64,000 bases of DNA from Acidobacteriota bacterium (GTDB taxonomy: Bacteria > Acidobacteriota > Terriglobia > Terriglobales > Acidobacteriaceae): the NCBI GenBank assembly GCA_028872955.1, contig JAGWNX010000004.1, forward strand, positions 26,075 to 90,074. The letters run 5' to 3'. Made by a program: the position numbers and the translations under genes. This document shows positions 40,381-62,371 of this stretch, piece by piece. The notes below the pieces were generated by a model. The model did not search any database. It saw only the letters and a list, made by a program, of their open reading frames with translations, and was not told the DNA's origin. Within the stretch, counting starts at the first letter, position 1; the number at the start of each line of letters is the position of its first letter.

Positions 40381-40455
40381 GGCCAGATAGCTCAGTGGTA
40401 GAGCGCGGCCCTGAAAAGGCCGGCGTCGGCGGTTCGATCCCGTCTCTGGCCACCA
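40381..40455 (+). tRNA. tRNA-Phe (GAA)
   Basis: Acceptor stem GGCCAGA/TCTGGCC, anticodon arm CGGCC-CTGAAAA-GGCCG, GGTTCGATCC T-loop, encoded CCA. Confidence 0.97.
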
Positions 40456-40553: not shown

Positions 40554-41690
40554 TCAGGCGGTCTGTTCTAACTTCTGTTGCCCAGTTTCCGCAATCTCCC
40601 TCCCCTCTGACTGCGGCTTTAGCTTGCCCCAAATTTCGCGGGATACACTGCCGGTCTTCACGATGTGCGCCCGAGCGAGGTCTGCATACCGTTCCGTCAT
40701 CTTGATGTTGGAATGCCCAAGCAGCTTCGAGAGCTCGTAAATATCACCGCCGGACATCATGTACCAGGACGCGAAGGTGTGACGCAGGTCGTGGAAACGA
40801 AAGTCTCGAATCTCTGCTCGTTCGAGCAGTTCACGGAGACTCTTGTCCGCACGCTGACGTCCACTTGTTGCGCCGGGCTCAGGGGGCAAAATCCGATCCT
40901 CTCCGAGGACAGCCGGATACCTTCGGATCTCCTCAGCGAGTTCGGGTGACAAGGGCACGTGACGTATCGTTCCTTTCTTAAGCTTTGCCCTCACCACGAT
41001 CAATCCCTCGTTGTAGAGAATGTCTCTCCACTCGAGACGAAAGATCTCCCCGCGCCGCATACCGGTTCCAACGGCAATGAGTACCAACAACCGCAGACGA
41101 AGATTCGTCTTGTTGATGTCCTTCGTGCCCTTCCGGTACATCCTCTCGTCGAGAGCGACCATTAATCTTGGAAACTCTTCTTCTGACAGGTAGCGCTTCC
41201 GAGTATCGTCGACATGTTCAACTTCCACCTGGTCGGCAGGGTTCCGGTCGATGCCGGTCACTGTCGCCCAGATGGTGGATGCCTTCCTCATCATGTGGTG
41301 CATGACGTGGAAGTGGCGCTCGGCTGTGTTTACGGCCAACTCACGAACATCCGTCAGATTGTCGTACCACTCCTGCACAGCCATTCCATCCACCTCTCGT
41401 ACGAACATTCGGCCAAGCGCGGCACGGATGCCCTCGACGATGCTCTTCTCTCGATCCGCAGACCTTTTCTTTACCCCGTATTGGGTCCAATACTTATCGA
41501 TCAGGTCGTCCATCCGGTAGTTAATTTGCTTCTTCACATCGAGGTGCCGGTTTTCAGCTCGAAGTGTGAGTTTCTTATCCTGAATTTTCTTTGCGAGTTT
41601 TGCCGAGCCGTGAACAATCACGCTCCGTGCGCGGCCTCCCTCTCTCCAACGGACCTTGTACAACTTTTCATCTAACTTTGTGACAGACAT
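40554..41690 (-). CDS. int: Tyrosine recombinase (phage-type integrase)
   Basis: TGMRRGE, RFHDLRHTFAS, LLGHSNIKMTERY; R/H-x-x-R/H/Y catalytic residues intact. Confidence 0.95.
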   Translation of the reverse strand: MSVTKLDEKLYKVRWREGGRARSVIVHGSAKLAKKIQDKKLTLRAENRHLDVKKQINYRMDDLIDKYWTQYGVKKRSADREKSIVEGIRAALGRMFVREVDGMAVQEWYDNLTDVRELAVNTAERHFHVMHHMMRKASTIWATVTGIDRNPADQVEVEHVDDTRKRYLSEEEFPRLMVALDERMYRKGTKDINKTNLRLRLLVLIAVGTGMRRGEIFRLEWRDILYNEGLIVVRAKLKKGTIRHVPLSPELAEEIRRYPAVLGEDRILPPEPGATSGRQRADKSLRELLERAEIRDFRFHDLRHTFASWYMMSGGDIYELSKLLGHSNIKMTERYADLARAHIVKTGSVSREIWGKLKPQSEGREIAETGQQKLEQTA

Positions 41691-42021: not shown

Positions 42022-42115
42022 AATCCAAATCTCGGTCAAATCTCATTCGTCCCCTCGTAGGGAATGGCATGCTCGTCAGCCGAGCGAATGGTGTGATTTG
42101 ACTGAGTTTCCGATT
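42022..42115. promoter_or_regulatory. Divergent pair of element-specific 21-bp motifs
   Basis: GATTTGACCGAGATTTGGATT (minus, 42042-42022) and GATTTGACTGAGTTTCCGATT (plus, 42095-42115). Confidence 0.7.
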
Positions 42116-42152: not shown

Positions 42153-42407
42153 ATGAAATCAACGAGCGGTATACCGCTGGCCTTTTTCTTGACCGTCATG
42201 AACGTATGGGCAGCGTGGCAGTTTGGCGTGCCCCTATGGCAGGTCTGGGGAGCGGATCCACTGAAACGTGTAGGCCTACTGTTGATGTCAGGTATTGCCT
42301 CCGCGAGCCTGTGTCATGCCTGGGCACAGATTCTCAAGATCAGACAGCTTCAGCAACGCTTGACGGCAATATCAGCGCCTCCCACCTCGGAGGTTGCCGA
42401 TGTTTGA
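42153..42407 (+). CDS. Small membrane protein (2 TM), hypothetical
   Basis: GAGGAGG SD; overlaps the start of the next gene. Confidence 0.65.
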   Translation: MKSTSGIPLAFFLTVMNVWAAWQFGVPLWQVWGADPLKRVGLLLMSGIASASLCHAWAQILKIRQLQQRLTAISAPPTSEVADV

Positions 42408-43320
42408 GTCAATGCATGCTCTCTCCACAGGCCTAAACTCTGCAGGCTACTTCATCAACCCAGTGATGACGCAGGTCGTCTTCCTCGCGACACGACTGCA
42501 GAAGCCTCTCTTGCTGGAAGGTCCGGCCGGATCGGGCAAAACGCAGCTTGCCTTATCTGTCGCTAAAGCGGGCAGGACGCACATTGAACGATTGCAGTGC
42601 TACCAAGGCGTCACCGAGGCGCAGGCCATCGGTAGCTTCGACGCCGGGCTACAGCGTCTTTACCTCGAGTTCTCGAAGAATCAGCATTCCGACTGGCAAT
42701 CACTTCAAGCCAATCTCACTGGACGGGAGTTCTTCCGACCCGGACCGCTGATGCGCGCTCTCGAATGCGAACGGCCATGCGTCTTGCTGATCGACGAACT
42801 CGATAAGGTCGACGACGGCTTCGAGGCGATGCTGCTGGAAATCCTTTCAGCTTGGCAGCTCTCCATTCCCGAGTTCGGTACGGTACGAGCGAAGAGCATT
42901 CCTTTCGTAGTGCTCACCAGTAACGAGGAGAGGCGGCTAGGGGACCCGATCCGCAGACGGAGTCTCTATGTTCGGGTCGAGCATCCGACCCCAGAGCTCG
43001 AAGCCGACATCATCGCCAGCCGCACTCCTGAGGCGAAGGCCAGCTTCCATCGTGAAATTGCTGGCATCGCTCGATCCTTCCGAAACTACTCGCTCGAAAA
43101 GCCTCCCTCCGTCTCGGAGATGATCGATTTCGCGCGAGCTCTGCAGGTCTTAGGGACAAATCATGTCACCGAAGATTTACGCGATGTTCTTCTGCCATTC
43201 CTGGCAAAAACAGAGAAGGACCGCCGTCACCTAATGTTGCGGGAGGGCTTCAAGAGCCTGCTGAACGACGGTGCGAAATACGCGAAGGAACTTGCTTCGC
43301 CTGAGGGGGCTCTGCCATGA
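42400..43320 (+). CDS. MoxR/CoxD-type AAA+ ATPase
   Basis: LLLEGPAGSGKT, RLQCYQG, VLLIDELDK, VVLTSN, IRRR, PPSVSEMIDFARAL. Confidence 0.85.
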   Translation: MFESMHALSTGLNSAGYFINPVMTQVVFLATRLQKPLLLEGPAGSGKTQLALSVAKAGRTHIERLQCYQGVTEAQAIGSFDAGLQRLYLEFSKNQHSDWQSLQANLTGREFFRPGPLMRALECERPCVLLIDELDKVDDGFEAMLLEILSAWQLSIPEFGTVRAKSIPFVVLTSNEERRLGDPIRRRSLYVRVEHPTPELEADIIASRTPEAKASFHREIAGIARSFRNYSLEKPPSVSEMIDFARALQVLGTNHVTEDLRDVLLPFLAKTEKDRRHLMLREGFKSLLNDGAKYAKELASPEGALP

Positions 43321-43790
43321 AGCCTCTTTATGTTCTTCTGACTATCCTCTTTTCCTGCGCTGCCCAAGGGCAGACAGCTCGCGCCTTCTCCGAGCAGTGT
43401 GTGCAACGATATGCCTCCCTCTACCACATCGAGCCGGAAATAATCGCGGCCTTCATTGATGTGGAATCTGGCTGGAACCCGCGCGCCCTGTCTCCCAAAG
43501 GTGCCATGGGTCTCCTGCAACTCATGCCTGCAACAGCCACGCGCTTCGGGGCCTTTGACCCATTCAATCCAGAGCAGAACATAGCCGCCGGCACACGCTA
43601 CATCACCAGGTTAATGTGGGAGTTCCACGGCGATCTGCGGCTCGTTGCCGCAGCCTACAACGCCGGGGATAAGTGGGTGGGCAAGTGGCTCCTCGACTAT
43701 CGCAATCCCGACGTCGTTGCCTACGTCACCGCAGTCCGTAGGCGTTACATCCTCCGCCGTATGGCGGCATACCCACAGCCCAGGAGATAG
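43317..43790 (+). CDS. Lytic transglycosylase (SLT, VirB1-like)
   Basis: IDVESGWNP..SPKGAMGLLQLMP, AAAYNAG; signal peptide. Confidence 0.92.
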   Translation: MKPLYVLLTILFSCAAQGQTARAFSEQCVQRYASLYHIEPEIIAAFIDVESGWNPRALSPKGAMGLLQLMPATATRFGAFDPFNPEQNIAAGTRYITRLMWEFHGDLRLVAAAYNAGDKWVGKWLLDYRNPDVVAYVTAVRRRYILRRMAAYPQPRR

Positions 43791-43793
43791 ACC

Positions 43794-44723
43794 ATGAAAC
43801 TTCGTTGGCTCATTCCAATCGCTTTCCTGCTCCCCATACGGTCATTCGCTGCAGATGACCAGCATGGCCGTGTAACCACTCTCACTATCCAACCCGGTGC
43901 GATCACACAGCTCCATCTGCGACCAGAGTTCGAATCCGTCATTCACCTGCCGGAGGAGGTCACTTCCGTGGTCGTCGGTAGTCCAGGCTCCTTCCATGTG
44001 GAGCACAGCGAAGCTGAACCCGCCTTCGTCTACGTGAAGCCTGCGGTGCGCGCCGCGACGCAGAGCGATCTGCTTATCGCAATGAAGTCAGGCCAACACG
44101 TCATGCTGGAGCTGATCAGCGACGGCGATGGTGCCCCTGCGACGCAGGGTGTCGACTTCCTTCTGGACTACGAGCCCCGCAAGACGTTCGTCGTGTTTGC
44201 TGCGCCTCCGGAGTCGGATGGCTCGGCCTCATCATCTCGGCTGAGCGGGGTCAAAACGAATGGGAAGGCAACCTCTCTGTCTCCGATCGATCAGGCGCTC
44301 GCATTCCAGAGCAGCATCAATGCCCCGTCGTGGATGAGGTGGGATGGTCAGCAGATCCAGACGTCGCTTGGCGACATCCGGCAGTTGGGGAATCAGACAC
44401 TAATTGCATATTCGATCCTCAACGCGGGCGATCATGCGGTGGAGATTGTGGCGCCGCAGATCCAAATGGACGGTCGCAAGTCAAAGAAGAGCAAAGGCAA
44501 GAACATTCTCTCGGACCAGCTCCAGGTGCGAAGTTACCGGCTCACGGCTACGAGGCTTGAGCCCGGCGCGCGCGCCGATGGTGTTCTGCTCTTCGACCGG
44601 CCGAACTTCAAGTCGTCTATGGACAATCTCTTTCTTCAACTGGCGCAGGCGGATCAAGTCGACCGTCCGGTTCTTGTGAGGCTGCCGTTCACCCCACCCC
44701 TTGTCGCAAACAACAAGCACTAG
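43794..44723 (+). CDS. VirB9/TrbG/TraK-like secretion channel protein
   Basis: Signal peptide, ESVIHLPEEV.SVVVGSP..F.VE..VYVKP; lies directly before the VirB10-like gene. Confidence 0.6.
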   Translation: MKLRWLIPIAFLLPIRSFAADDQHGRVTTLTIQPGAITQLHLRPEFESVIHLPEEVTSVVVGSPGSFHVEHSEAEPAFVYVKPAVRAATQSDLLIAMKSGQHVMLELISDGDGAPATQGVDFLLDYEPRKTFVVFAAPPESDGSASSSRLSGVKTNGKATSLSPIDQALAFQSSINAPSWMRWDGQQIQTSLGDIRQLGNQTLIAYSILNAGDHAVEIVAPQIQMDGRKSKKSKGKNILSDQLQVRSYRLTATRLEPGARADGVLLFDRPNFKSSMDNLFLQLAQADQVDRPVLVRLPFTPPLVANNKH

Positions 44724-44737
44724 AGAGGAGCAGTTCT

Positions 44738-46003
44738 ATGAACCCGAATCAAAACGGTAATTTCCTAAATACAGAGTCCATGGAAGACCAGACTGTTCTT
44801 TTCGAACACTCAGAAACCCCGGCGAAATCGGAACCCGTCGCAGAACCACAAGAGGAGTCTCTGAAATGGGCAACGCGAGCCGATGCGCTGAAGACCGCGG
44901 CAACAGGTCGCAAACCTATTCTGCTGCTCGTCGGAAGCCTCGCAGCAGCAATTGTGTTGTTTGCGGTCACGAGCTTCGTCGGAAAGGTGCCCCACAGGAA
45001 AGTGCCGGCGCCTTCACAGAACAGCACTGAGAGTGCCGCACCCGCTAAACCCAAAGGGAGTGTCACACCTCTGATGGATACAGTGCGAAATCCCACCCAG
45101 AGCAACACCGCTGGACAGCTCACACCAGCCGATATCAACCGAACCAAGGCCAGCACAGGAACCCGGCCCACACCGACGTCCTCGCAGACGTCGTCGCGCC
45201 CGGCTTCCTCAACCGACACAACGCTGGCCTCGGTACCGCCCTTCGAATCCACGCAACAGCACTGGGAAGAACCGAGACCGTATGGCGACACGCAGGCGCC
45301 CCCACATCCTGCTGCTGCGGGGACACAGCAGAACCTGTTGAAAGAAGCTTCGCTTGTGTTCGTGAAGAAGTTGGAGCAGAACACCGCCAATAATGCGTCC
45401 GGGGGAACGAACAGCAATGACGTTACCCCAGAGCTGAACCTGACACCAGGGACGCGGGTTCAAGCGAGGCTTGAGACGCAGGCTTCAAGCGCTGTGACGG
45501 CACCGGTCGTCGCCGTCGTCGAATACACCTACTCTCTAGGCGATCGCATTGTGATCCCAGCGGGAGCCCGGGTCTACGGCCAGCTTCAGCAGGCCGATCG
45601 AAGTGGCGCGGTGAGTATCAAATTCAACGAGATCGAACTGTTGGACGGCAACCGGGAAAAGATCGAAGCGATCGGGACAAGCCTTGAACTGGGGCCGATC
45701 AAAGGGACGGTATCAGGGAAGAACACGGGGAAGAACTTCCTCGTGCGCACCGCCTCCGGAATTGGATCGGTCGCTGCGATGCTAGTGGGAAACAACACCA
45801 GCACTGCCTTCTCTCAGGATGACCTCATTCGTGAACGCATTGCGCAAAACATGGGCAATGCGGGCGATACGGAGATCATGAACATGGCCGTCACCAATCA
45901 CATCGTCGTTTCGTTGCCGGCGGACACGCCGATATACATCGTCTTCACTAAGCGTGAGGCGGCCTCGACACCCTCTCATCCTTCAACAAGCGCAAAACCA
46001 TAG
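44738..46003 (+). CDS. VirB10/TrbI/TraB-like protein
   Basis: Single TM helix, P/T/S-rich linker, PGTRVQARLET..PVVAVVE..IPAGARVYG C-terminal domain. Confidence 0.75.
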   Translation: MNPNQNGNFLNTESMEDQTVLFEHSETPAKSEPVAEPQEESLKWATRADALKTAATGRKPILLLVGSLAAAIVLFAVTSFVGKVPHRKVPAPSQNSTESAAPAKPKGSVTPLMDTVRNPTQSNTAGQLTPADINRTKASTGTRPTPTSSQTSSRPASSTDTTLASVPPFESTQQHWEEPRPYGDTQAPPHPAAAGTQQNLLKEASLVFVKKLEQNTANNASGGTNSNDVTPELNLTPGTRVQARLETQASSAVTAPVVAVVEYTYSLGDRIVIPAGARVYGQLQQADRSGAVSIKFNEIELLDGNREKIEAIGTSLELGPIKGTVSGKNTGKNFLVRTASGIGSVAAMLVGNNTSTAFSQDDLIRERIAQNMGNAGDTEIMNMAVTNHIVVSLPADTPIYIVFTKREAASTPSHPSTSAKP

Positions 46004-47215: not shown

Positions 47216-47236
47216 GATTTGACCGAGTTTGCGTTT
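47216..47236 (+). promoter_or_regulatory. Third copy of the element-specific 21-bp motif, upstream of the pilin/virB4 operon
   Basis: GATTTGACCGAGTTTGCGTTT, starting 79 nt before ATG 47295. Confidence 0.7.
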
Positions 47237-49217: not shown

Positions 49218-49415
49218 ATGCGAGCACACGTCACAGCACAGCCAGATGGAAGCATTCTCCTCCGCATGGATGTCGAGGCGGCACGGGCCACGTTTGCCAG
49301 TGTTGTCTTTGCCTCCCGATATAACGACGGCGTACGCGGTCTGGAGGAGATCGCGAAGCACGCCCTAGAAGACATACTGGAATCCACCGATCGGAGACAT
49401 GCGACATGCCGATGA
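49218..49415 (+). CDS. Small hypothetical protein (65 aa)
   Basis: GAGGAGG SD; fills the gap and overlaps the virB4 start. Confidence 0.55.
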   Translation: MRAHVTAQPDGSILLRMDVEAARATFASVVFASRYNDGVRGLEEIAKHALEDILESTDRRHATCR

Positions 49416-52054
49416 CCTATGCCGAACACGACAAGAAGATGAAAGCTCCCGCTATGTGCGAACTGTTGCCCCTCCGCGATCTGCCTGAGGGAGACAACGT
49501 GATCGTTCGCACGAACGGCTCATTCGTTGCGGGGTACGAGTTGAAGGGGGTGCTCTCGTACTTCGCGACGGATGGGGAGAGGAACCATGCGAAATCCTCG
49601 CTGGAGGCGCTGTTCCGCGGCATCCCCGACGTCAGCATGCGCGTACAGTTCCGCTACGAGATCGCGGAGCACCTCAACGGACTGATTGACGAGTACGTGC
49701 ACGCACAGCGAACCGATCAGGCGGAGATGATGGCGCTCGACGCCCACCGTGTCTGCAGATGGAGGGAGAAAGAGGCGGAGGGTGCGTACTTCCAGAATCG
49801 TCTCCACGTGTATTTCGTCTGGGACCCTCGGATCCATGCCAAGCTCTACCATTCGGTGGAACAGAATCGAAAGCTCGGCGGTTTCACTTTCAGCCAAAAG
49901 AAGGCCATCCAGAGAACACGCAAGGAACACGAAACGTATCTTGCCGAATTCGAGTCGATCCTTCGCGGTATTGAGAACTCCCTCGAGACCGAAGAAATCG
50001 GCCCACGCCGGCTGCTGACGCAGGAACTCTTCGAAGAGTTACAGTCGGCGCAGCATCCACGACGTCGCGATCGGAGGCCCTATATCCCAGGCGAGGAGAT
50101 GCTCTCGTATCGCAGCGCGCGGGATCAGGCCACCCATGCCAGCATCCTGAACGAAACCGAGAACTACCTCAATATCGACGGGTATCTGTACTCGGTTGTG
50201 AGCCTCAAGGAGCTGCCGGATGCGACCTTTCCTGGCATGTTGCAGAAGTTTTCGACACTAGGCTTTCCGTTGGTTATCAGCGGCCAGGTGGAGATTCCAG
50301 ACCAAGTGAAGATTCTGAAGGCGTATAAGAAGCGCCTCCAGAAGATGACCGCAGCGCAGAAGGACGCTAACGGAAACTTCAAGTCGAACCCGGAGGCCGA
50401 AGTTGCTCAGGCACAGCTCATTCAGGTGCAGCGCGACATCATCTCTTCCTCTTTGAAGACCGCGAAGTTGAGCCTCTCGGTAGTAGTGCGTACTTCCCAT
50501 GAAGCCGTCAGCTTCCGCGACCTAGAGTCGGCAGAGCGTGAGATCTCCAACCGAACACAAGAAGTCCTGAACGCTTTCACCCATATGAACGGGGCGCGTG
50601 GTGTCGTCGAAACCATTGCGAAGCGGCGCATCTTCATCGGGACCCTTCCAGGGATGGGTGAGACGGACAAGCGGGAGCAGGACATGCTTACCCCAAATGC
50701 TGCGGATCTGGTTCCGGTGGAGATGCCGTGGACAGGCACGCGAAAGAGCCCGCTGATGCTGTTCGAAACGCCGTACCGGCAGCTGATCCCGTACTCGATG
50801 TTCGATCCCGATCTGTCGGACGCCAATGGCCTCTTGATGGCAAAAACGGGTGGTGGCAAGACTCTGGCGGCCCAACAGATGCTCTTGATGGCTGCGCGCA
50901 ACAATGCCCGCGTCTCCATTCTCGAAAGCGGCGATTCCTATCGGCCCCTGGTTGAGCTGATGGGTGGCGAGATGGTCCAGATGTCGCTCGACAGCACACA
51001 GACGATCAACCCGTGGGATCTGCTGCATGGTGAGACGAAGCCATCGAACGACCAATTGGCATTCCTCAAGAATCTGACCCGCCACATGCTTGGGGAGAAC
51101 ACGCCACCTGACCTGGATATCGATCTGTTGGATAGCGTGCTGCTGGAGGCAATCACCTCCACGTACAAACGTTGCAGGGCCAAGAGCTCCAATCCAATAC
51201 CCCTCTACTCGGATCTCGCTGCGGAACTAGCCCACTGGCAGGACCGTGACAAGAATCAGAAGATCAATGAAATGGCACGCCTCGCGGCAATGAAGCTGCG
51301 CGCATGGGTCGATGACGGCCCCTATGCCAAGCTCTTCGATCGTCCTACGACCGTACGGCTCGACAGCCCGTGGCTCTATTTCAATGTGGAGAAGCTGAAG
51401 GATGATTCCCGGCTCGAACGTGCCATGAGCCTGAAGGTCGCTCATGCGGCGACTCATCGCGGCTCGGGGAGCGACGGCCTCCCGAACATCACGCTGCTCG
51501 ATGAGTGCTGGGCCATGCTCGAGTCGCCGATTCTTGCCTCCGTTGTCGTTCAGCTCTTCCGGACAGCACGCAAACGCTACGGCAGCGTATGGGGAATCAG
51601 TCAGACGCCGGAGGACTTCGTCGGAACGAAGGATAAGCCCAATCCCTTCGGCGCAGGCATCGTCAAGAATGCTTCCACCAAGATCATTGGCAAACAGCCC
51701 GGCGACATGACGACACACCGCGAGTACATGAACCTCAACGAAACGGCCATCAACCAAATCAAAGCCTTCGCGCAGCCGAAGAAGGGGCACAGGGCTGAGT
51801 TCCTGATCGCAATCGGTGAAAAGGCCGAGTCAACGCATGTCATCCGGATCGCGCCGACACCGGTGGACTACTGGATCACGACGACTTACCCGCGGGAACG
51901 CGTGTATCGGAAGTGGTGGCTGAATGCCCACACAGACGTTCCTCTTTTGTCTGCCTATGAGGGCCTTGCAAGCCTCTATCCACGCGGCCTGGCCGATCTT
52001 GCGCCTCTTCCTGAGGAGATGTCCGGAGAGGTTCTGGAGGTGAAAACCCTATGA
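49406..52054 (+). CDS. virB4: VirB4 family conjugal transfer ATPase
   Basis: Walker A AKTGGGKT, INPWD, Walker B LLDECW, RTARKRYG..ISQ; 882 aa. Confidence 0.88.
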   Translation: MPMTYAEHDKKMKAPAMCELLPLRDLPEGDNVIVRTNGSFVAGYELKGVLSYFATDGERNHAKSSLEALFRGIPDVSMRVQFRYEIAEHLNGLIDEYVHAQRTDQAEMMALDAHRVCRWREKEAEGAYFQNRLHVYFVWDPRIHAKLYHSVEQNRKLGGFTFSQKKAIQRTRKEHETYLAEFESILRGIENSLETEEIGPRRLLTQELFEELQSAQHPRRRDRRPYIPGEEMLSYRSARDQATHASILNETENYLNIDGYLYSVVSLKELPDATFPGMLQKFSTLGFPLVISGQVEIPDQVKILKAYKKRLQKMTAAQKDANGNFKSNPEAEVAQAQLIQVQRDIISSSLKTAKLSLSVVVRTSHEAVSFRDLESAEREISNRTQEVLNAFTHMNGARGVVETIAKRRIFIGTLPGMGETDKREQDMLTPNAADLVPVEMPWTGTRKSPLMLFETPYRQLIPYSMFDPDLSDANGLLMAKTGGGKTLAAQQMLLMAARNNARVSILESGDSYRPLVELMGGEMVQMSLDSTQTINPWDLLHGETKPSNDQLAFLKNLTRHMLGENTPPDLDIDLLDSVLLEAITSTYKRCRAKSSNPIPLYSDLAAELAHWQDRDKNQKINEMARLAAMKLRAWVDDGPYAKLFDRPTTVRLDSPWLYFNVEKLKDDSRLERAMSLKVAHAATHRGSGSDGLPNITLLDECWAMLESPILASVVVQLFRTARKRYGSVWGISQTPEDFVGTKDKPNPFGAGIVKNASTKIIGKQPGDMTTHREYMNLNETAINQIKAFAQPKKGHRAEFLIAIGEKAESTHVIRIAPTPVDYWITTTYPRERVYRKWWLNAHTDVPLLSAYEGLASLYPRGLADLAPLPEEMSGEVLEVKTL

Positions 52055-53798: not shown

Positions 53799-55577
53799 AT
53801 GATATCCCTATTCCATCCCGCCACCGCCGCACTCGCGCTCTTTCAGTCGACGCAACTGAGTGTCTTCGAGCGCTTTCTGACGCAGGCGGTCACTGGTATC
53901 GACTCGACAAGTATCACTGCCGGGATGCAGAAGGCCGCTTATGTGGTCCTGTTGATTGGGTTCTTGTGGCAGGTATATCAGTCAGCGCTGCACGGCGGGG
54001 ACGTGCGTGGACTCGGCACCAACCTGATCAAATATGTCGTCACGGCAATCGTGGTGATGAACTATCACACCGTTTTTACCTCGATCAATCAGGGCTTTGT
54101 GAACGCCGGCAACTGGATTAACAGCGCATCCGGCGCTACCAGTCTCTTTGAAAACTGGGCCAGTGACCTCAAAACACAGTTCAGTCAGGTTGGATTCCAG
54201 AAGCTTTGGGGATTGGTAACAGCCGATCTACCCGGTCTCATCGATGCGCTCCTGATCATCGTTGCCTATATTCTGTATCCAGTCGTCATCGTCATCTTCG
54301 GCTTTTTCTACATGCTGTACGGATCGATCCTCTACATCTTTGGGCCGATCGTGATCGCGCTTATGCCGCTCGGTGCCACAAATCGGCTGGCAAAATCCTA
54401 TGCCGAGAACGTCTTCATCTGGAACGCGTGGCCTATCCTCTACGGCGGTTTCGGTGCTCTTCTCAGTGCCGTTCAGATGGGTCAGATCGGACAGATGCTC
54501 AACTCGAACAACTTCCTCGGTGGACTGGGCAATCTCGAAGGCTCGATTCTGATCGGCTTGGCCAGCATCATCTATTCGCTCGCTATTGCAGTTATCCCAT
54601 TCATCGCGAAAAAGATTGTGAGCGGCGATGTCGGTAGTACGGCCAGTACATTGCTTGGAGCTGCAGCGACGGCCCTTACTGCCGGAGTCGCAGCAACCGA
54701 AGGTGTAGCAGCGGGACTTGCAAGCACTTCAGGACAAGCCGTCTCTGGCGGAGGAAGAGCCGCCGCGAGCAGTGTACCGGCCGGTAATTCATCCGCAGCC
54801 ACTGGATCGAATCAGCCCGCAGTTCCTCAGCGAATGCAGCCAGGAACTGGTGAACAGCAACGTTCGATGACTAGTACCAGCGCAGCCACACCGGCGACAT
54901 CACCCTCGCTTCCTTCATCGTTCCCTTCGACTCAAGGAGAAGTTGTCGCGGAGGGTATTCGTGGCGGTCTCGAGTCTGCTATCGATCAAACTTCGAAGAA
55001 CGAAGCGGGTGTCCCATCCCACTCTGCGGCATCCTCAAGTAACAGGGGTAATGGAACGACTACAGCCAAACCTACAGATGACGGCACAGCCTCGCCATCG
55101 CGAGGTACCACATCCCCGAAGCCCTCGCACCATAAGGGAAATGGTCCCTCAGCCGGCCTTATGCGGCCCCATGGCCTGGCTACATGGGGTGCATACCACG
55201 CTGCTCGACTCGCCACTCAGGGAGCTGTCGGTGGCGCCCGTGCTGTGGGTGCCACTGCAAAAGGTGTTACCAACACCATCGCGAATCCCGTCAAAACGGC
55301 TGGTCAGGTGGGTACGAAGGCTGGTCAGATCTCGGGAAACGTAGTGAATGCTGCCGAGAAAACTGCAGCGGTTTCCGAACAAATCGCAAATGGCGTAACG
55401 CACCCTCGCAAAACGGTGGGTGCTGGTGCTCAGGCTATGGCAGATGCAGCAAGAACCGCTGTCTCCAATGCATCGTCTACAGTTCGCGGAAGCGCATCAG
55501 CCATGAAAACGAATTTCTCCCAAGCCTACGAAAAGACCCGTGTCGGAGAGATGAGCGACGACAAGGAATCCGCATAG
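53799..55577 (+). CDS. VirB6/TrbL-like polytopic membrane protein with long S/T/A-rich tail
   Basis: Five to six TM helices, GPIVIALMP..TNRLAKSY, low-complexity C-terminal half. Confidence 0.7.
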   Translation: MISLFHPATAALALFQSTQLSVFERFLTQAVTGIDSTSITAGMQKAAYVVLLIGFLWQVYQSALHGGDVRGLGTNLIKYVVTAIVVMNYHTVFTSINQGFVNAGNWINSASGATSLFENWASDLKTQFSQVGFQKLWGLVTADLPGLIDALLIIVAYILYPVVIVIFGFFYMLYGSILYIFGPIVIALMPLGATNRLAKSYAENVFIWNAWPILYGGFGALLSAVQMGQIGQMLNSNNFLGGLGNLEGSILIGLASIIYSLAIAVIPFIAKKIVSGDVGSTASTLLGAAATALTAGVAATEGVAAGLASTSGQAVSGGGRAAASSVPAGNSSAATGSNQPAVPQRMQPGTGEQQRSMTSTSAATPATSPSLPSSFPSTQGEVVAEGIRGGLESAIDQTSKNEAGVPSHSAASSSNRGNGTTTAKPTDDGTASPSRGTTSPKPSHHKGNGPSAGLMRPHGLATWGAYHAARLATQGAVGGARAVGATAKGVTNTIANPVKTAGQVGTKAGQISGNVVNAAEKTAAVSEQIANGVTHPRKTVGAGAQAMADAARTAVSNASSTVRGSASAMKTNFSQAYEKTRVGEMSDDKESA

Positions 55578-55604: not shown

Positions 55605-56306
55605 ATGTTCAGCACAGAAGCGGACGTGAAAGCCTCGGGGCCTCGCCTGAAGTACTACGAGATGGATGGGGCGCGGCTCGCCAATGCCAATCGAGCGTGG
55701 TTGCTTGCATTCCTCATGGCGATCCTTGCAGTTGTGGCCCTCGGGTTTGCAATCATGGTTTGCCTCAAACCCCCAACGGTGATTCGCATCGGAGCCAACG
55801 GAGATGCAGCGGTGCTCGGGCAGTCATCGCCTTCAGTCTCAAGTTCCGCCGGAGATCCCTATCTCACCGAGGTCTTCGTCAAACGCTTCCTCTCCGAATA
55901 CCTGAACTACAGTCCCTCGAATGTAGATGACCACTGGGCAACAGCACTGAACAAGATGACTCGCAACCTTCGTGCCATGACGATCAAAGCGATGTCTGAT
56001 GGCAACGTTCGCGGCAAGATCGACGACGACCAAATCCAGTCGGTATTCCATCTTCGCGAAATGGAGCCCGTCACAGGAGAACCCTTGACCTTCCTGGTCT
56101 ATGGCGTGAAAGACGTGCACCATGTCACGAACGGCGGCGAAGTAACGGACCACTTCGTGAACGAGTACAGGATTCGCCTCGTGGCCGACAGGCGAAGTGA
56201 CGCCAACCCAGACGGGCTTTGGATCGCAGAGTATAGCGAGCGGCCGATTGATGGCGAACGCCGCAATGTCATTCTCTCGGCTTCCGACCAAAACAACAAC
56301 GAGTGA
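55605..56306 (+). CDS. VirB8/TrbF-like protein
   Basis: NRAW + TM + PTVIRIGANG, FVKRFLSEYLNYSP, DGLWIAEY. Confidence 0.7.
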   Translation: MFSTEADVKASGPRLKYYEMDGARLANANRAWLLAFLMAILAVVALGFAIMVCLKPPTVIRIGANGDAAVLGQSSPSVSSSAGDPYLTEVFVKRFLSEYLNYSPSNVDDHWATALNKMTRNLRAMTIKAMSDGNVRGKIDDDQIQSVFHLREMEPVTGEPLTFLVYGVKDVHHVTNGGEVTDHFVNEYRIRLVADRRSDANPDGLWIAEYSERPIDGERRNVILSASDQNNNE

Positions 56307-56319
56307 GGAGGGTATATCG

Positions 56320-56619
56320 ATGGAGGCAACGCAAGCAAAGATAACCGATGCTCCACCGGGGCAACTGCCCGCGAATCCCGCTCAAAAGAAAGGGCGGAAG
56401 GGTCGCAACAGCGAAGAGACAGCTCGGTTCTTTCTCGCCAAAGAAGGTTCCTCTCCCCAAAAACCTGAATTGGGAGAAGAGGCGCAAACCGAAAGCGACG
56501 CCCTCATCAAAGCATTCCAGCAGAAGACGGGCGTGATCTACGTAGTGACAGCATTTCGGGCTGAAGCAGAAATACAAGGAGGCAGCCCTGTATTGGTGAA
56601 ACGGCCGCTCACGAAGTAG
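56320..56619 (+). CDS. Hypothetical protein (99 aa)
   Basis: GAGGAGG SD; basic N-terminal segment KKGRKGR. Confidence 0.7.
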   Translation: MEATQAKITDAPPGQLPANPAQKKGRKGRNSEETARFFLAKEGSSPQKPELGEEAQTESDALIKAFQQKTGVIYVVTAFRAEAEIQGGSPVLVKRPLTK

Positions 56620-56715
56620 CGGCAACGGTCAGCAAACGGCATTCAAAGAGGAGACACACCTTATTCAGGCCACTGTCCTCTCTTGAACCTTATCGCCTGG
56701 GCGATGAGGAATTCC

Positions 56716-56859
56716 ATGCTGACCCGGACTCGATCACTGAGGCCTGGTTCGGTTATCCAACCACCCCTAACACGGGCGCCAGGCACAAGTGAAACGAACT
56801 CGGGACAGCGAGCTCTCAATCACTCATCTGGAGCGCCAGACAGTGAGGAGAAACGATGA
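56716..56859 (+). CDS. Putative 47-aa leader ORF overlapping the polymerase start (ATGA)
   Basis: GAGGA SD, ATG 56716, TGA 56857-56859 overlapping ATG 56856. Confidence 0.35.
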   Translation: MLTRTRSLRPGSVIQPPLTRAPGTSETNSGQRALNHSSGAPDSEEKR

Positions 56860-59420
56860 TAGCGAACATGACCCAATCCGTGACGGAACACTCGAAGCTC
56901 ATCCTTGAGCTATCGATTGATGCGTTTGGCCTTGTCACACGCAAAGAATCGGAACTCAACCGGAAAGATACGCTCGAGGGCACGCTCCTCGTGCAGATCT
57001 ATCCAGGGATCAAAATCGCACGCGTGAGTGTGCCAACTGAACTCGACGCCTACGAGCAATCGTTGGTGGAAAGCCGGATGGCCAACCTGATGTATCAGGG
57101 CATTCACTACAAACTTGCAGGCGCGAGCGGTGCGGCGAAGGACGGACGTTTCTACTTCGTTGATACCACCCATGCGAAGGACATTGCTGAGCGCTTTCAG
57201 CATTGGCCCGAGGCGGCGATGGTGTACTTTTCCATCCTCATCTCTGATTGCAAGACTGTGATCGATGATCCGAACGTGACTGTTCTTGTCGTCAAGGATC
57301 ATGTCCTTGGCACCAACGATTGCCGCGGTTGGCTTCGAGAGTCCCTGTATCGGAAGCTGCAGCTTCCCCAGGATCGATTCGCTCAGTTTCGACTGGCGTT
57401 CGATGCACGCGAACCGAAGCAGGCGAAAGGCGCTGTCAAGGCGATGAGCGACCGCGTAGCTGACAAGCTCGGGGTCGATATCATCTTGCCGGAAAGCTCC
57501 TGTAAGCCCGAGCTCAAGGGATCAGGAAAATTCATCCCCCAGGCGAAGACCACCGGAAGGCTTGTGCAGGGTCCGGTCATTCTGGGAATCAAGCATGTCT
57601 CCCGAAGGACCGTTTACGGCTCCAGCTACACGTTGGTCGAAAATGCTTCGGAAGAGGCTCTTCGTACCGAGATCATCCCTCCAACCGTGGAGGAAGTTCG
57701 TCAGGTACGGAAAGCATGGGAGGACGGGGATTATTCCGCTCTCCTGAAACTGTTGGGACGGAACGAAGAAGAGGAAATCAGCTTTGACGATAGCTTCGAC
57801 ACCGAAAGCTTCGAAGGGGCTGCAGTCACCGCTTCCCAGGAAGGCTGTGATCCGTCAGAGGCGGTACTGCTGGCTGACAAGAGCGGAAGTGCTATTCGGA
57901 TTCCGTTCGTTGCCAACCAGCTGAACCGTAAACTGGCACGCTGGGCCTTTCGCGCAATGACAGGTGGGACATTACGTCTTCCTGCATTCGCACTGGCCGA
58001 CGATGGTGTCCTGATCGAACATGCGGGGAAAATCTACTCCGCATCTGACTGGATTCCGAAGGACAGCGCGATCACTTCGCTCACCTCCGAGCAGAGCTTG
58101 TGTGTCCGGTACCCAATACGGATGCAGGAGGATCTGCTACCAGTCCGCCATCTTTCCGATGACGACCTGGTCCCCCGTCTCGCAGAAGCACTCGGCAGAT
58201 CGGACTTATCCGAAGGCACCGTCCGTCACATCCTGCGTACACAGCTTCGCATGCATGGAGCCTACATCCTGCATTCGGAGACTGCGGCAAAGAACGGTGG
58301 TGACTTCGACTATGACACCATCTGCACTATCCCATCCGACCGGTTCCCGAAGTTCGTTCAGGGACGGATCGCCTATGGAGAGCATTTCACGAACCCGGAG
58401 AAGACCAAGACCAAGGCCCGCTCCCAGTGGTGGAATGTACATCTGGTTGCCATGAAAGCACGCGGAAACAAGATCGGCTCCATTACCGATCTGAAGACCT
58501 CGTGCGTGGCGGCCGGCAGGATTGACCTTGCTTACCAGCTGGTCATTCAACTGCAAAACGCGCTGGACTCCCTCAAACACAAGGTATCCGTGGATGAGGA
58601 ATTGGTGCGCGAAATCCGCAAACAGGTCAATCCATCTCCCTGGCTTCGCTATAAGCGCGAGCGCAGAGTGACGGACATGCCCATGCACCTCGAAGTCGCC
58701 GACACCGACAAGGTGGGCCGGATGTACAACGTGGTGCGCAAGGAACTGGGCGACCTCGAGCAAGAAAAGTCGACCATGGAAGACTTCCGGGGTCTTTTTA
58801 CAGGCCATTCGGTCAGCAAGGAGATGTTCCGGGAGTGTGAGCTGGTCAACAACGTCTTTGGCTCAGTCGCTTCCAAGATCACTGAACGCGAAGAGAAACT
58901 CCGGCTGGAGTTGAACAACGCGCAGGCGTTCTGGGATGCGGGCCGCCAAAGCCAAGACAAGGAAATGAGGAAGTCAGCCGTCATCGCCCGGAATAAGGCG
59001 CAGGCGGCAGTCTGGGAGTCGGAACAGGACGCGAAAAAGCAGTTTCGTTCGCTCAACCTGTTCATGCACTTCTGGGCAGAGGGCAAGCAGGACGGCCGGG
59101 CAGCCTGGGCGCAAGCAATGGCTCATGTCGTTACCAACGGCAAAGGTACCGGTGCAGCTCTCTTCCATACCTTCCCACAGGAAATAGTCGATGCGTTTGC
59201 GGAACAGACCGGTGGCGAAAGTGTTCTGGTCCGCAAGCCAAAGACGATCGATGGATACGTCGAGTTCGATGAAGAACAGCGTGCGTATCTCGTCGAAATC
59301 ATCCCCAATCCCGGGGCCGAAGACACCAAGAAAGCGATCTTCCTGTTCCAGTACACAGGCAATCGTGAACTCGTCTTCGAAGACACGAGGGTCTCGCCTT
59401 ATCGGGCAGATCTCTCCTAA
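56856..59420 (+). CDS. Single-subunit two-barrel RNA polymerase-like protein (cellular RdRP/YonO-like)
   Basis: Ordered motifs TNDCRGW, FAQFR..AKG, LPESSCK, PF..L, LADDG.L, VRYP, GGDFDYD (D483/D485/D487), IGSITD, ALDSLKH. Confidence 0.72.
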   Translation: MIANMTQSVTEHSKLILELSIDAFGLVTRKESELNRKDTLEGTLLVQIYPGIKIARVSVPTELDAYEQSLVESRMANLMYQGIHYKLAGASGAAKDGRFYFVDTTHAKDIAERFQHWPEAAMVYFSILISDCKTVIDDPNVTVLVVKDHVLGTNDCRGWLRESLYRKLQLPQDRFAQFRLAFDAREPKQAKGAVKAMSDRVADKLGVDIILPESSCKPELKGSGKFIPQAKTTGRLVQGPVILGIKHVSRRTVYGSSYTLVENASEEALRTEIIPPTVEEVRQVRKAWEDGDYSALLKLLGRNEEEEISFDDSFDTESFEGAAVTASQEGCDPSEAVLLADKSGSAIRIPFVANQLNRKLARWAFRAMTGGTLRLPAFALADDGVLIEHAGKIYSASDWIPKDSAITSLTSEQSLCVRYPIRMQEDLLPVRHLSDDDLVPRLAEALGRSDLSEGTVRHILRTQLRMHGAYILHSETAAKNGGDFDYDTICTIPSDRFPKFVQGRIAYGEHFTNPEKTKTKARSQWWNVHLVAMKARGNKIGSITDLKTSCVAAGRIDLAYQLVIQLQNALDSLKHKVSVDEELVREIRKQVNPSPWLRYKRERRVTDMPMHLEVADTDKVGRMYNVVRKELGDLEQEKSTMEDFRGLFTGHSVSKEMFRECELVNNVFGSVASKITEREEKLRLELNNAQAFWDAGRQSQDKEMRKSAVIARNKAQAAVWESEQDAKKQFRSLNLFMHFWAEGKQDGRAAWAQAMAHVVTNGKGTGAALFHTFPQEIVDAFAEQTGGESVLVRKPKTIDGYVEFDEEQRAYLVEIIPNPGAEDTKKAIFLFQYTGNRELVFEDTRVSPYRADLS

Positions 59421-59427
59421 CCCTGCG

Positions 59428-59459
59428 GAGGAGGTGCGGACATTCGTCTGTGCCTCCTC
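59428..59459 (+). other. 14-bp stem-loop directly after the polymerase-like gene
   Basis: GAGGAGGTGCGGAC-attc-GTCTGTGCCTCCTC; no U tract. Confidence 0.7.
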
Positions 59460-59503
59460 TCGCTGGAGATTCTGTCGCCTGGAACAGGCGCACGGAGGAG
59501 ACT

Positions 59504-60340
59504 ATGAACCGCTTCTTGTTAGCCGGCATGGCGCTGTTCGCATTCTCGGCGAAGGCGCAGAATATTAACTTTTCAGACGTCCAGCACATCCACACGTCCT
59601 TGAATCACCTGACGGTGATCGACCTGGGTGAGCCCATCCAGTTCATTGCGGCAGCGGATCCAGACTCCTTCCAGATCGAGCGGGTCGGCGACAAGGTGCT
59701 CTTGCAACCTCTCAAGGAAGGCGCTTCCACGAATTTGATTCTCTGGACTGCCTCGCGACAGGTCTCCTATGAGCTGGATGCTCCGGGGGACACCGCCAGG
59801 ATGAATGTTCTTGTGCGCTCTCTTCCTACATCTGTACACGCTGGGACGGAGACCTCCTCCGCAAAGGAACGTCAGGAGATCGCGGCAACCGCCACCACAC
59901 AAGCCATGCTTGGCGCTCAGGATATTGTTGCGGATCAACCGTCCAAGAGCCCTTCGAACACCGTCGCAGTGTCCCTCGTCCGCATCCTGCATACGAGCGA
60001 AGGGACCTATCTTCAATACCAGGTCGTCAATCACTCCACGACACCCTTCCGCGTAACGACGCCTGCTGTTACCCAGCTCACTCCGACACAGACGTCTGTC
60101 TCCCTCGTCGCGCTGCGCAACCATCAACTGTCGTCGCAAACACTCGGCAGCTTCAAGGCCAAATCGAATGGCGCGTCAGTCGTACTCGCAGGACAGATGC
60201 AGCAGTCCGATGTGCAGCCGGGAACTTCGACGAGCGGCTTCGTTCTGATTCGTGCCGTCAATGGCTCCACTCCGGAGATTTTCCATCTCGACTTTGGCTC
60301 GACCACGTCAGGTCCGATTGTTCTCGCCGTGGTGATCTGA
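59504..60340 (+). CDS. Second VirB9/TrbG/TraK-like secreted protein
   Basis: Signal AKA-Q, LTVIDLGEPI..DPDSFQIE..VLLQP..TNL; two-domain layout like 43794. Confidence 0.6.
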   Translation: MNRFLLAGMALFAFSAKAQNINFSDVQHIHTSLNHLTVIDLGEPIQFIAAADPDSFQIERVGDKVLLQPLKEGASTNLILWTASRQVSYELDAPGDTARMNVLVRSLPTSVHAGTETSSAKERQEIAATATTQAMLGAQDIVADQPSKSPSNTVAVSLVRILHTSEGTYLQYQVVNHSTTPFRVTTPAVTQLTPTQTSVSLVALRNHQLSSQTLGSFKAKSNGASVVLAGQMQQSDVQPGTSTSGFVLIRAVNGSTPEIFHLDFGSTTSGPIVLAVVI

Positions 60341-60341
60341 G

Positions 60342-60578
60342 ATGGCAGCCGATCGTTTCGTCACCACGGCTGAGGCCCGGGAGATGCTGCGCCGAGCCTA
60401 TCGCTCGGATAGTGAAATCAACCTTGAGGCGGTCGTCCGCCGCGCCGCCTCCGACCCGATCAAGCCGCTGTCGGAGAAAGGCCGCATGCGGCCGAGCACG
60501 CTTGTGGTAGTCGGCAGCATCATGCTGATCCTTCTCATCGCTGCCTTCTTTTACTTCAGTTTCGGAGGACGCGGATGA
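60342..60578 (+). CDS. Small membrane-anchored hypothetical protein
   Basis: C-terminal TM helix; ATGA coupling to virD4. Confidence 0.65.
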   Translation: MAADRFVTTAEAREMLRRAYRSDSEINLEAVVRRAASDPIKPLSEKGRMRPSTLVVVGSIMLILLIAAFFYFSFGGRG

Positions 60579-62371
60579 GCCCGACGTATGATGATCGCAG
60601 GCCAGCGCCGCGCGGCAGCGAAGATGCCGCCGGGATCGTTGTGTTAGGCGGCTGCGCTATTGTCGCGGTGTTCTGGTACATCGGGGTCTCACGCCTGCAC
60701 CTGCGCAATGCGCAATGCCTCGAGCTATTCCTCGACTTTGCAGTCACCCTCTTTGGAACGGGGTTAGTTCTCTCTGACTTCATTGGCCGGCGCCAGCGGC
60801 GGGAAGAGTCCTGGCCGCATCCTGCCATCCACATACCGGGCGAGGTCGACGAGAAGAATCTCTCTCGTGCCCGCGAAGAAGGAAGCACTCTCCTCGGCTA
60901 CGACATCCATGAGGAGCCGTGGTTCTGGCCGGATTCCGTTCGCCTGAAACATGGTGTCATCGCCGGAGGAACCGGCGCCGGAAAGACAACCTTCTTCCAG
61001 AGCATCATCGCGCAGGACCTGAATCGGACCTTCCATGGCAGACGGATGCCCATCATTATCTTCGATGGCAAAGGCGATCAGGCTTTCGTACAAGAGCTGC
61101 TGCCGCACATCGAGGCCGCCGGACGCATGGAAGATCTGAGGCTCATCGATCCCTCGAATCCGCAGGAATCGTGGTCTTATAACCCGTTGTACAGCCCAGA
61201 CTCGCTCTATCAGGAACACGTCAACTTCATCTTCTCGTCCTTCGGTATGCGTGAGGATTTCTTCGCCGGACACCAGGAAGCCTATCTGTCCGATCTTGTT
61301 CGCATTCTCTACTACAGCGGCAAGGTCTTCAACATGCGCGATGTGCTGGTAATGGCGCTGGACGAGAAGGTACTGAATGAACAAATCGGCATCGCGCAAA
61401 AGCGGATTGATAGCAATCCTGTCATCTCGCTCACCATGCGTCTGAACTTCGAGATGTCTGTGAAGATGATTCGGAAGTCGCTGGCGGACCGGGAGCGCAT
61501 TGCAAAGATTCAGGGCTTGCTGAATGAATTGCTGGCGTTCCTGGAGGATGATTTGTCCATCGTCACCGGCTCCTACCAGAACATGCTGACCATCGAAGAG
61601 GTTGTCGACAAGAGCCTCATTCTCATCATCAGCCTCAACTCCAACAAGAACAAGCGGGCCAGCGAAGCGCTCGGCAAGATCCTTCTACAGAACATCCGGC
61701 TGATGGTTGGAAAACGCTACCAACAGATGCTGTCGTTGAATCTTGAGCAGGAGCCAATTCTAAGCGTCATCTGTGATGAAATCGCGCGCTATGCCGACCC
61801 GGATTTTCCGCAGGTCCTGCAGACCGCACGAGGAGCCCGCGTCTCGTTCCTATTTTCTTTCCAGGCCGTACCCCAGCTCGAGAACGTCAGCCGCGCCTTT
61901 GCCGAAGAAGTCTGTTCCGCGCCGGGCACGAAGATGCTCATGAACGGTACAGACGAGTCCACAGCACAGTGGTTTCTGAAAGCCTCGTCTCGTGTTCTGC
62001 GCAAACGCCGCAGTCTTGCTGTCCGCCGTACCGGTATTTTCAGCCAGAAGTACATCGAGACCGGTACCGGCAATGAGAGCGACGCTCGTGAGACGCGCTC
62101 GAGGGAAGAACACATTAAGAACATGCCGGTAGGCCAGCTCGAGATCCTCATGGTCGATCCGCGCGAGGGTACTTTGCACTCTCACCTCCATGGGCGACGG
62201 GCGTTCTCCTACCGCCCGGAAGAGATGAAGTCGGCTCTCTATCCGCGCATGCATGACGTCATCGATCCCAACGTGGGAGCCAATCTGCGTTTCAGTAACG
62301 ATGAGCCACGCCGCGGACGCCGCAGAACGGCAGGCACGTTGGCGAGTCTCTGGACCGGGGAGGAAGCATGA
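60575..62371 (+). CDS. virD4: VirD4/TraD-like type IV coupling protein
   Basis: Two N-terminal TM helices, Walker A GGTGAGKT, IFDGKGD, YNPL, Walker B VICDE, FQAVPQL. Confidence 0.85.
   Translation: MSPTYDDRRPAPRGSEDAAGIVVLGGCAIVAVFWYIGVSRLHLRNAQCLELFLDFAVTLFGTGLVLSDFIGRRQRREESWPHPAIHIPGEVDEKNLSRAREEGSTLLGYDIHEEPWFWPDSVRLKHGVIAGGTGAGKTTFFQSIIAQDLNRTFHGRRMPIIIFDGKGDQAFVQELLPHIEAAGRMEDLRLIDPSNPQESWSYNPLYSPDSLYQEHVNFIFSSFGMREDFFAGHQEAYLSDLVRILYYSGKVFNMRDVLVMALDEKVLNEQIGIAQKRIDSNPVISLTMRLNFEMSVKMIRKSLADRERIAKIQGLLNELLAFLEDDLSIVTGSYQNMLTIEEVVDKSLILIISLNSNKNKRASEALGKILLQNIRLMVGKRYQQMLSLNLEQEPILSVICDEIARYADPDFPQVLQTARGARVSFLFSFQAVPQLENVSRAFAEEVCSAPGTKMLMNGTDESTAQWFLKASSRVLRKRRSLAVRRTGIFSQKYIETGTGNESDARETRSREEHIKNMPVGQLEILMVDPREGTLHSHLHGRRAFSYRPEEMKSALYPRMHDVIDPNVGANLRFSNDEPRRGRRRTAGTLASLWTGEEA

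Follow-up and report, generated by a model that had tools for sequence, protein, structure and literature searches.

Introduction

Single-chain RNA polymerases (RNAPs) built around two double-psi beta-barrel (DPBB) domains are known from phages and prophages, namely YonO, gp62/gp64, gp66 and gp96 (PMC2919709, PMC5467207, PMC10770324), and 'YonO-like' genes are known in firmicute and cyanobacterial genomes (PMC2919709, PMC5467207). A review mentions 'transposon relatives' of the RNA-dependent RNA polymerases (RdRPs) without detail (PMC7824862), and a survey of proteins transferred by conjugation lists primases where conjugative elements are concerned but N4-type RNAPs from phages and prophages only (PMC5512222). 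Here we describe a gene for a predicted single-chain two-barrel polymerase that lies among the type IV secretion system (T4SS) genes of an integrative conjugative element (ICE) in a soil bacterium of the Acidobacteriota. The stretch analysed, hereafter the window, comprises 64,000 nt of contig JAGWNX010000004.1 (assembly GCA_028872955.1), and positions are those of the window. Conjugation is thought to use the host RNAP together with Toprim or archaeo-eukaryotic primases (AEP) for all of its RNA synthesis. With a two-barrel polymerase among the core genes of a T4SS operon, conjugation would have either an unrecognised enzymatic step or a transcription system owned by the element, and the small group of single-chain two-barrel polymerases known from bacteria would grow. 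These polymerases attract interest because of the origin of RNAP and of the polymerases of eukaryotic RNA interference (RNAi), and as compact orthogonal polymerases in engineering. In the searchable literature we found neither a two-barrel polymerase described as a conserved T4SS-operon gene nor this acidobacterial family. Literature matches to 'YonO' combined with 'conjugative' were discarded, being to the author name Yonogi and not to the gene.

Results

The gene is predicted to encode a single-chain two-barrel polymerase

The polymerase gene (P0001) occupies positions 56856-59420 of the + strand as an uninterrupted open reading frame (ORF) of 854 codons, translated without stops, with a GAGGAG Shine-Dalgarno (SD) sequence 7 nt 5' of its start. 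Three independent lines of evidence, namely the fold model, the profile links and the conservation of the catalytic residues, agree, and the product is therefore very probably a catalytically competent single-chain two-barrel nucleotide polymerase of the RdRP/phage-RNAP branch. A first-pass annotation, made from the sequence, had read in this protein the motif series of the cellular RdRPs and of YonO, and all of the motifs that it listed were found in the 854-aa translation. In the N-terminal half these are GASGAAKDGRFYF (residues 89-101), TNDCRGW (D155), FAQFR (R179), AKG (K191) and LPESSCK (211-217). The C-terminal half contains LADDGVL (380-386), VRYP (R418), GGDFDYD (D483/D485/D487), IGSITD (540-545) and ALDSLKH (569-575).

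An AlphaFold2 model was built on an alignment of 27 family sequences with identity down to 29 % (alignment A2). The mean predicted local distance difference test score was 86.6 and the predicted template-modelling (TM) score was 0.83. Comparison of the model with the PDB using Foldseek gave just seven matches at E<=1e-3, all of them single-chain two-barrel phage RNAPs, including P23-45 gp64 (8f72), P74-26 gp62 (8f5m), P23-45 gp96 (8h2m, 8h2n) and crAss-like phi14:2 gp66 (6vr4). The E values for 8f72, 8f5m, 8h2m and 6vr4 ranged from 6e-9 to 5e-6. Pol IV and isolated DPBB domains (the VCP N-domain and 7dbo) were matched more weakly, the latter being consistent with two DPBB domains in the catalytic core. 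Against BFVD there were 12 significant matches, the top one being to an 'RNA dependent RNA polymerase' (E 2.3e-15) and one being to a P23-45 protein.

The strand pattern of the model places D155, R179 and K191 in a first strand-rich block and R418-P420 together with DFDYD in a second, and this order of the barrels is the same as in YonO and QDE-1. The first, beta-like barrel (DPBB-B) is predicted from the strand pattern and from conservation to span residues ~134-255 (57255-57620, + strand) with D155, R179, K191 and K195, and was aligned by hhalign to TGDCHGKIS, FQFR and SKG of P0273, a relative from Nostoc. The second, beta'-like barrel (DPBB-A), delimited by the model, hhalign and conservation, would span residues ~374-493 (57975-58334, + strand) and carry R418-Y-P420 and the metal loop. 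The putative metal-binding motif itself, DFDYD (58302-58316, + strand), aligned with DFDGD of P0273 and of a Pseudanabaena relative, P0272, and was in register with DNDGD of YonO. The two-barrel fold that had been proposed from the motifs is thus supported by AlphaFold2 and Foldseek, which point to two DPBB domains in one core.

Eight residues are universal to two-barrel RNAPs, and in QDE-1 these are D709, R738, K743, R962, P964, D1007, D1009 and D1011 (Ruprich-Robert and Thuriaux, PMC2919709). Their counterparts here are D155, R179, K191, R418, P420, D483, D485 and D487, an equivalence that is based on motif order and on the hhalign alignment to P0273. With the exception of one fragment, all eight were kept in every sequence of A2 that covers them. 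D155, R179, K191, K195, R418, P420 and D485 were identical in all covering sequences, while N538, G541, D571 and K574 were invariant or nearly so. The three aspartates of the predicted metal triad, D483, D485 and D487, were retained in 26, 27 and 26 of the 27 sequences, the fragment accounting for the exceptions. The invariant and near-invariant columns coincide exactly with the motif positions picked out in the first-pass annotation. Since they are conserved across 27 relatives down to 29 % identity, the motifs are not chance strings.

Outside the barrels, residues 740-790 (nt ~59073-59225) form a strongly conserved C-terminal block with the pattern W-x-x-GK-x-x-NR-x-x-W-x-Q-A … TGS-x-LF-x-AFPQE-x-VD-x-x-AE-x-TGG. 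The block is discernible in the cyanobacterial relatives too, and may be a clamp element.

DFDYD has a Tyr in the place of the Gly of DxDGD, which had been described as a replacement of a normally conserved residue. The Tyr is genuine, but the position varies within the family: of the 27 sequences of A2, 15 have F at residue 486, 8 have G and 4 have Y, and members with the canonical D[FY]DGD therefore sit inside the same family. The aromatic residue in 19/27 members and the location of the gene among structural T4SS genes would both suit a protein with lost or changed chemistry. Such a protein could be a polymerase-derived secretion scaffold, or else a DNA polymerase with two barrels, as archaeal PolD is, with the filling-in of the transferred strand as its task. 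PolD shows that a two-barrel core can make DNA (PMC7708050). We consider this reading highly improbable, as members of 29-92 % identity retain the three Asp, a fourth Asp, the Arg-x-Pro and the barrel Lys/Arg, which is not expected of an inactive scaffold. The interspersed canonical DGD members also speak against it, and no match to PolD was obtained in the fold search.

Profile comparisons link the family to RdRPs

The polymerase sequence gave only noise against Pfam, NCBIfam and the PDB sequences, and the family profiles gave nothing beyond noise against the PDB. The placement next to the RdRP family (Pfam RdRP, PF05183; curated gathering cutoff 23.8 bits) held for relatives but not for the protein itself: P0001 had no match even at E<=10, whereas P0273 passed the cutoff with 24.4 bits. 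Three further members (P0128, P0155 and P0140) matched PF05183 weakly (13.6-16 bits, E 0.005-0.03) at model positions 429-560, the DxDGD region. Over both barrels, the family profile aligned by hhalign to P0272 and P0273 with probabilities of 99.9 % (E 7e-37) and 99.4 % (E 1.4e-21), and these two proteins carry canonical DFDGD, DCHGKIS, FQFR…KG, RYP and VDxxKS.

Among the PHROG families, phrog_34895, which has no annotated function, was matched by 7/27 family members (best E 7e-8), and phrog_4291, 'RNA-dependent RNA polymerase', was matched weakly by two. A tblastn search with the polymerase against 50,697 phage records gave no match. The PHROG matches therefore suggest that phage relatives may exist that tblastn against the GenBank phages missed.

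The description of the protein as YonO-like stood in part. Its motifs are in register with those of YonO, but hhalign of A2 against YonO, or against an 18-sequence YonO alignment, gave E values of 0.11-0.17 and a probability below 1 %. A narrow filing as YonO-like was dropped, since neither the low-diversity alignment A1 nor the diverse A2 was significant against YonO or the YonO family, and 'YonO-like' therefore applies at the superfamily level only.

The family is nearer to Pfam RdRP than to any other family tested. Together with the weak phrog_4291 matches, this would be in keeping with RNA-templated synthesis by a true RdRP, making double-stranded or antisense RNA, for example for element control, competitor exclusion or counter-defence. 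We regard this as very unlikely. The conserved neighbourhood contains no Argonaute, Dicer-like or other RNA-silencing partner, the characterised bacterial and phage members are DNA-dependent, and RNA-templated synthesis would leave the strict T4SS synteny described below unexplained.

The polymerase is a core gene of an acidobacterial ICE family

The family is large and unannotated anywhere. There were more than 1,338 matches in a 90 %-clustered collection, all 'hypothetical', with names including Telmatobacter, Terracidiphilus and Acidicapsa, and 549 representatives at 50 % clustering. Species-representative genomes yielded 452 confirmed polymerase loci, the best 80 of which were all from Acidobacteriota/Terriglobia. 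Cultured hosts include Telmatobacter bradus DSM 23630, Tunturiibacter psychrotolerans X4BP1, Acidicapsa dinghuensis and Granulicella sp. L60, so that the role of the enzyme is directly testable. Several assemblies carry two polymerase loci, that is, two copies of the element (L011/L017, L004/L013, L044/L063, L028/L047, L036/L053, L038/L045 and L037/L055). Some of these pairs are quite divergent, the copies of Acidicapsa dinghuensis being 65 % and 54 % identical to the window protein.

In the window, the polymerase gene lies co-oriented between virB8-like and virB9-like/virD4 genes, all on the + strand, and Pfam bears out this reading of the context. Upstream are the genes for a VirB4-type ATPase (49406-52054; P-loop_TraG, E 2.5e-15), a TrbL/VirB6-like membrane protein (53799-55577; TrbL, a weak match at E 1.3e-3, but syntenic in all relatives) and a TraE/VirB8-like protein (55605-56306; TraE 2.5e-5, VirB8 2.9e-4). 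Downstream are a second CagX/VirB9-like gene (59450-60340; CagX, E 3e-7) and the gene for a VirD4-type coupling protein (60575-62371; TraG-D_C and TrwB_AAD_bind). Conservation of this arrangement was assessed by tblastn of the window neighbours against 80 fetched loci. The order VirB4, two unknown genes, VirB6, VirB8, polymerase, VirB9-like, VirD4 and two unknown genes was found in every locus that was long enough, over ~70 Acidobacteriota loci and from 91 % down to 49 % polymerase identity. In relatives of 34 % and 40 % identity, too, the gene is flanked by a VirB4 gene on one side and by CagX/VirD4 genes on the other, with a Replic_Relax gene near the 34 % relative and a gene for a single-stranded DNA-binding protein (SSB) two genes downstream of the polymerase in the 40 % relative. 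The polymerase belongs to the vertically kept core of a large family of Acidobacteriota ICEs, always in the arrangement virB8-polymerase-virB9-like/virD4.

Further upstream on the + strand are genes for an AAA+ ATPase, an SLT/VirB1-like transglycosylase, a CagX/VirB9-like protein and a TrbI/VirB10-like protein (42394-46003; Pfam). A tyrosine integrase gene (40554-41690, - strand; Phage_integrase, E 3e-32) adjoins a tRNA-Phe gene (40381-40455, + strand; ARAGORN), where the element probably integrated and where its left end would lie. What the window covers is therefore the left portion of an ICE, with an integrase beside a tRNA gene, VirB4, VirD4, VirB6, VirB8, SLT, two VirB9-like proteins and a VirB10-like protein, and the right end lies beyond the 64 kb. 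Between virB8 and the leader of the polymerase gene is a 99-codon ORF (56320-56619, + strand) read from the sequence, which has its own SD, is in frame with an ORF at 56197-56619 and encodes a protein with a basic N-terminal part and no assigned family. Small ORFs precede the polymerase in the divergent relatives L083 and L084 too.

Downstream of the transfer genes, the backbone of the element was compared in 54 loci. A Replic_Relax gene (PF13814) was present in 53/54, a 159-aa unknown protein in 50/54 and an AEP-type primase in 46/54, as in L003 (17379-22055). The model that this AEP matched is that of the 'TOTE conflict system' AEP. Only 16/54 loci had a PAPS-reductase-like gene, and we saw no classical MOB relaxase within 10 kb.

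Cyanobacterial relatives were found by tblastn on 15 plasmids, of which 7 are typed conjugative and some mobilisable. On Nostoc pNPM2, typed MOBP/MPF_T, the relative (P0273; L087 12007-15357) is co-oriented with a VirB4-like gene and lies ~7 kb upstream of it, at the head of a co-oriented run that reaches this gene. Upstream of the pNPM2 relative are a prokaryotic E2/JAB/ThiF ubiquitin-like cluster and an nSTAND-WD40 gene. On Pseudanabaena pPg_05, the relative (P0272; L086 11965-14328) has methyltransferase and helicase genes around it instead of virB8 and virB9. It is thus in the acidobacterial lineage that the gene is strictly embedded in the T4SS operon, and the link to plasmids and conjugative elements is wider.

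A structured leader and a recurrent 15-nt motif may regulate the element

The 236 nt in front of the polymerase gene (56620-56855, + strand) form a structured leader according to RNAfold and RNAalifold. The RNAfold energy was -89.7 kcal/mol (z -4.23), and none of 200 shuffled sequences was as stable. In the last hairpin, UCUC…CACUC is predicted to pair with GUGAGGAGA, the SD of the polymerase. RNAalifold on 20 relatives kept this hairpin, with compensatory changes in 6/11 pairs and a weak energy, and on all 63 leaders it gave no consensus. The SD pairing probability of the 63 leaders showed no excess over shuffled upstream sequence (0.55 vs 0.58). Given the weak energy for 20 sequences and the negative test on 63 leaders, the suggestion that a structured, SD-pairing leader sets polymerase translation apart is only partly supported. 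The leader blocks CACCCCTAAC…GGGCGGCCAGGCG and CGCCAGACAAGTGAGGAG are highly conserved. A 47-codon upstream ORF (56716-56859) overlaps the polymerase start (ATGA). Read by eye and assuming the same start, it stops after ~17 codons in L052 (at a CCCTAA block) and after ~5 in L078, and since its length is not conserved it is probably not a conserved coding unit.

The 15-nt motif GATTTGACYGAGWTT is present in three copies in the window, with 0.23 expected, and each copy faces an operon. Copy 1 (42028-42042, - strand) faces xis/int, copy 2 (42095-42109, + strand) faces the AAA-SLT-VirB9-VirB10 operon, and copy 3 (47216-47230, + strand) lies upstream of the long + strand T4SS run that contains the polymerase. 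The motif recurs in 16 related loci (including L004, L009, L010, L044, L053 and L071), in most of which it precedes the conserved AEP gene by ~40-70 nt. It may be an element-wide promoter or operator, and includes a -35-like TTGAC.

These observations bear on the main alternative to the conjugative role that is set out in the Discussion, and one that is nearly as likely. The polymerase could be an element-specific transcriptase that reads the element's own promoters in the donor and transcribes its transfer, excision and replication operons independently of the host RNAP. YonO on the late genes of SPbeta (PMC5467207) and gp64 on the early genes of P23-45 would be its analogues. Since the polymerase gene is inside one of those operons, such an enzyme would form a positive-feedback switch gated by the SD-pairing leader. 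The distribution of GATTTGACYGAGWTT and the stability of the leader are in line with this, as is the fact that the nearest solved structures are promoter-specific phage RNAPs (PMC10770324). However, TTGAC is an ordinary sigma-70 -35 element, so that GATTTGACYGAGWTT may combine a promoter for the host RNAP with an operator; none of the copies of the motif lies directly upstream of the polymerase gene; and regulators of conjugative elements are usually not buried among structural T4SS genes.

Discussion

The fold, the conserved catalytic residues and the core-gene status of the polymerase are results of the analysis, and a function in conjugation itself is inferred. In this tentative mechanism, the polymerase would be made together with the mating apparatus and would synthesise RNA on single-stranded element DNA during conjugation. 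The RNA could serve as primers for the complementary strand, as the first transcripts of the incoming strand, or both. The enzyme could act in the donor, at the relaxosome or coupling protein, or in the recipient after passage through the T4SS, and would then be the conjugative counterpart of the transferred plasmid primases and of the phage virion RNAPs. We give this mechanism a probability of roughly 0.4, a figure that is separate from the identity of the enzyme.

We favour this conjugative role because the gene sits in the run of mating-pair and coupling genes, with which it is presumably co-expressed, and not with regulators. An SSB gene two genes downstream in one divergent relative, and the relatives on conjugative or mobilisable cyanobacterial plasmids, point in the same direction. 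QDE-1, a member of the RdRP branch, has DNA-dependent as well as RNA-dependent activity (PMC9508822). There are also established precedents for delivery with DNA, in that the conjugative primases TraC1 and Sog are known to transfer and virion RNAPs are injected (PMC5512222). Among the phage relatives, gp66 and gp96 enter the cell with the DNA by injection.

Several points weigh against this role. The conserved AEP-type primase downstream implies that priming may not need the polymerase, and the idea that the polymerase is the sole primase of the element was weakened by it. No recognisable T4SS translocation signal was identified in the polymerase. The closest solved relatives are transcription enzymes that work from specific promoters on double-stranded phage genomes (PMC10770324), and the conserved GATTTGACYGAGWTT, which precedes several operons of the element, would fit an element-specific transcriptase just as well. 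An aromatic residue instead of the Gly of DxDGD is unusual, and the chemistry could differ. P0001 has no Toprim or AEP domain in Pfam or NCBIfam, and a primase-like role would be one of analogy only.

By a further analogy, the polymerase would be a T4SS substrate that travels with the single strand and primes or transcribes the incoming DNA, or does both, before the host can express any of the element genes. We regard this extension as doubtful. If true, it would amount to a conjugative equivalent of the virion RNAPs, on an ancient two-barrel core common to the eukaryotic RNAi polymerases.

Comparison with known systems

The best structural matches are Thermus phage P23-45 gp64 and P74-26 gp62 (8f72 and 8f5m; PMC10770324), with Foldseek E values of 6e-9 to 1e-7 and TM scores to the target of 0.44-0.54. 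Like the polymerase described here, they are single-chain enzymes of minimal size with DPBB-B before DPBB-A. However, sequence identity is ~10 %, they have ~590 aa compared to 854 aa here, and their metal motif is unlike the DFD[FYG]D of the acidobacterial family. They are also phage-encoded, transcribe phage genes from GC-rich promoters and have no link to conjugation. The virion RNAPs phi14:2 gp66 (6vr4) and P23-45 gp96 (8h2m) are significant fold matches as well (E ~1e-6). They are delivered with the nucleic acid and act first on the incoming DNA, and are thus the closest analogy to the favoured mechanism. In contrast to the 854-aa polymerase, they belong to giant virion or tape-measure proteins and reach the new host through a phage tail, whereas delivery by the T4SS is hypothetical here.

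The eukaryotic RdRPs (QDE-1, RDR2; PF05183) share with the family the motif series and its order, comprising the DbDGD-type loop, R-x-P, Q-x-R…KG, and the LGxIxN-like and VDxxK-like motifs, and their catalytic region is matched by three family members and one cyanobacterial relative. P0001 itself lacks a PF05183 match and QDE-1 is not among the top fold matches. The setting also differs, in that the gene is carried here by a mobile element of a bacterial host and RNAi partners are absent. YonO of the Bacillus prophage SPbeta (PMC5467207), an enzyme of 839 aa, is likewise a single-chain two-barrel protein of a mobile element, and hhalign sets DFDxD on DNDGD and GNxIG on GINIG, in a profile comparison that falls short of significance (E 0.11-0.17). 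The Cys-rich tail at the C-terminus of YonO has no counterpart in the 854-aa polymerase, which is of similar length, and YonO is a prophage late-gene transcriptase of Firmicutes.

RP4 TraC1 and R64/ColIb Sog (PMC5512222) resemble the polymerase as functional analogues only, in that their genes belong to transfer regions and RNA is made on the transferred strand. Their folds are of the unrelated Toprim/DnaG type, without sequence or structural similarity to P0001. The cyanobacterial proteins P0272 and P0273 are clear homologs over both barrels and are plasmid-borne, but they are 22-27 % identical to the acidobacterial polymerase and have the canonical DFDGD. In the acidobacterial family, a fold and chemistry that were already known are therefore combined with a functional setting that is new and conserved, and the metal-loop motif is a variant one.

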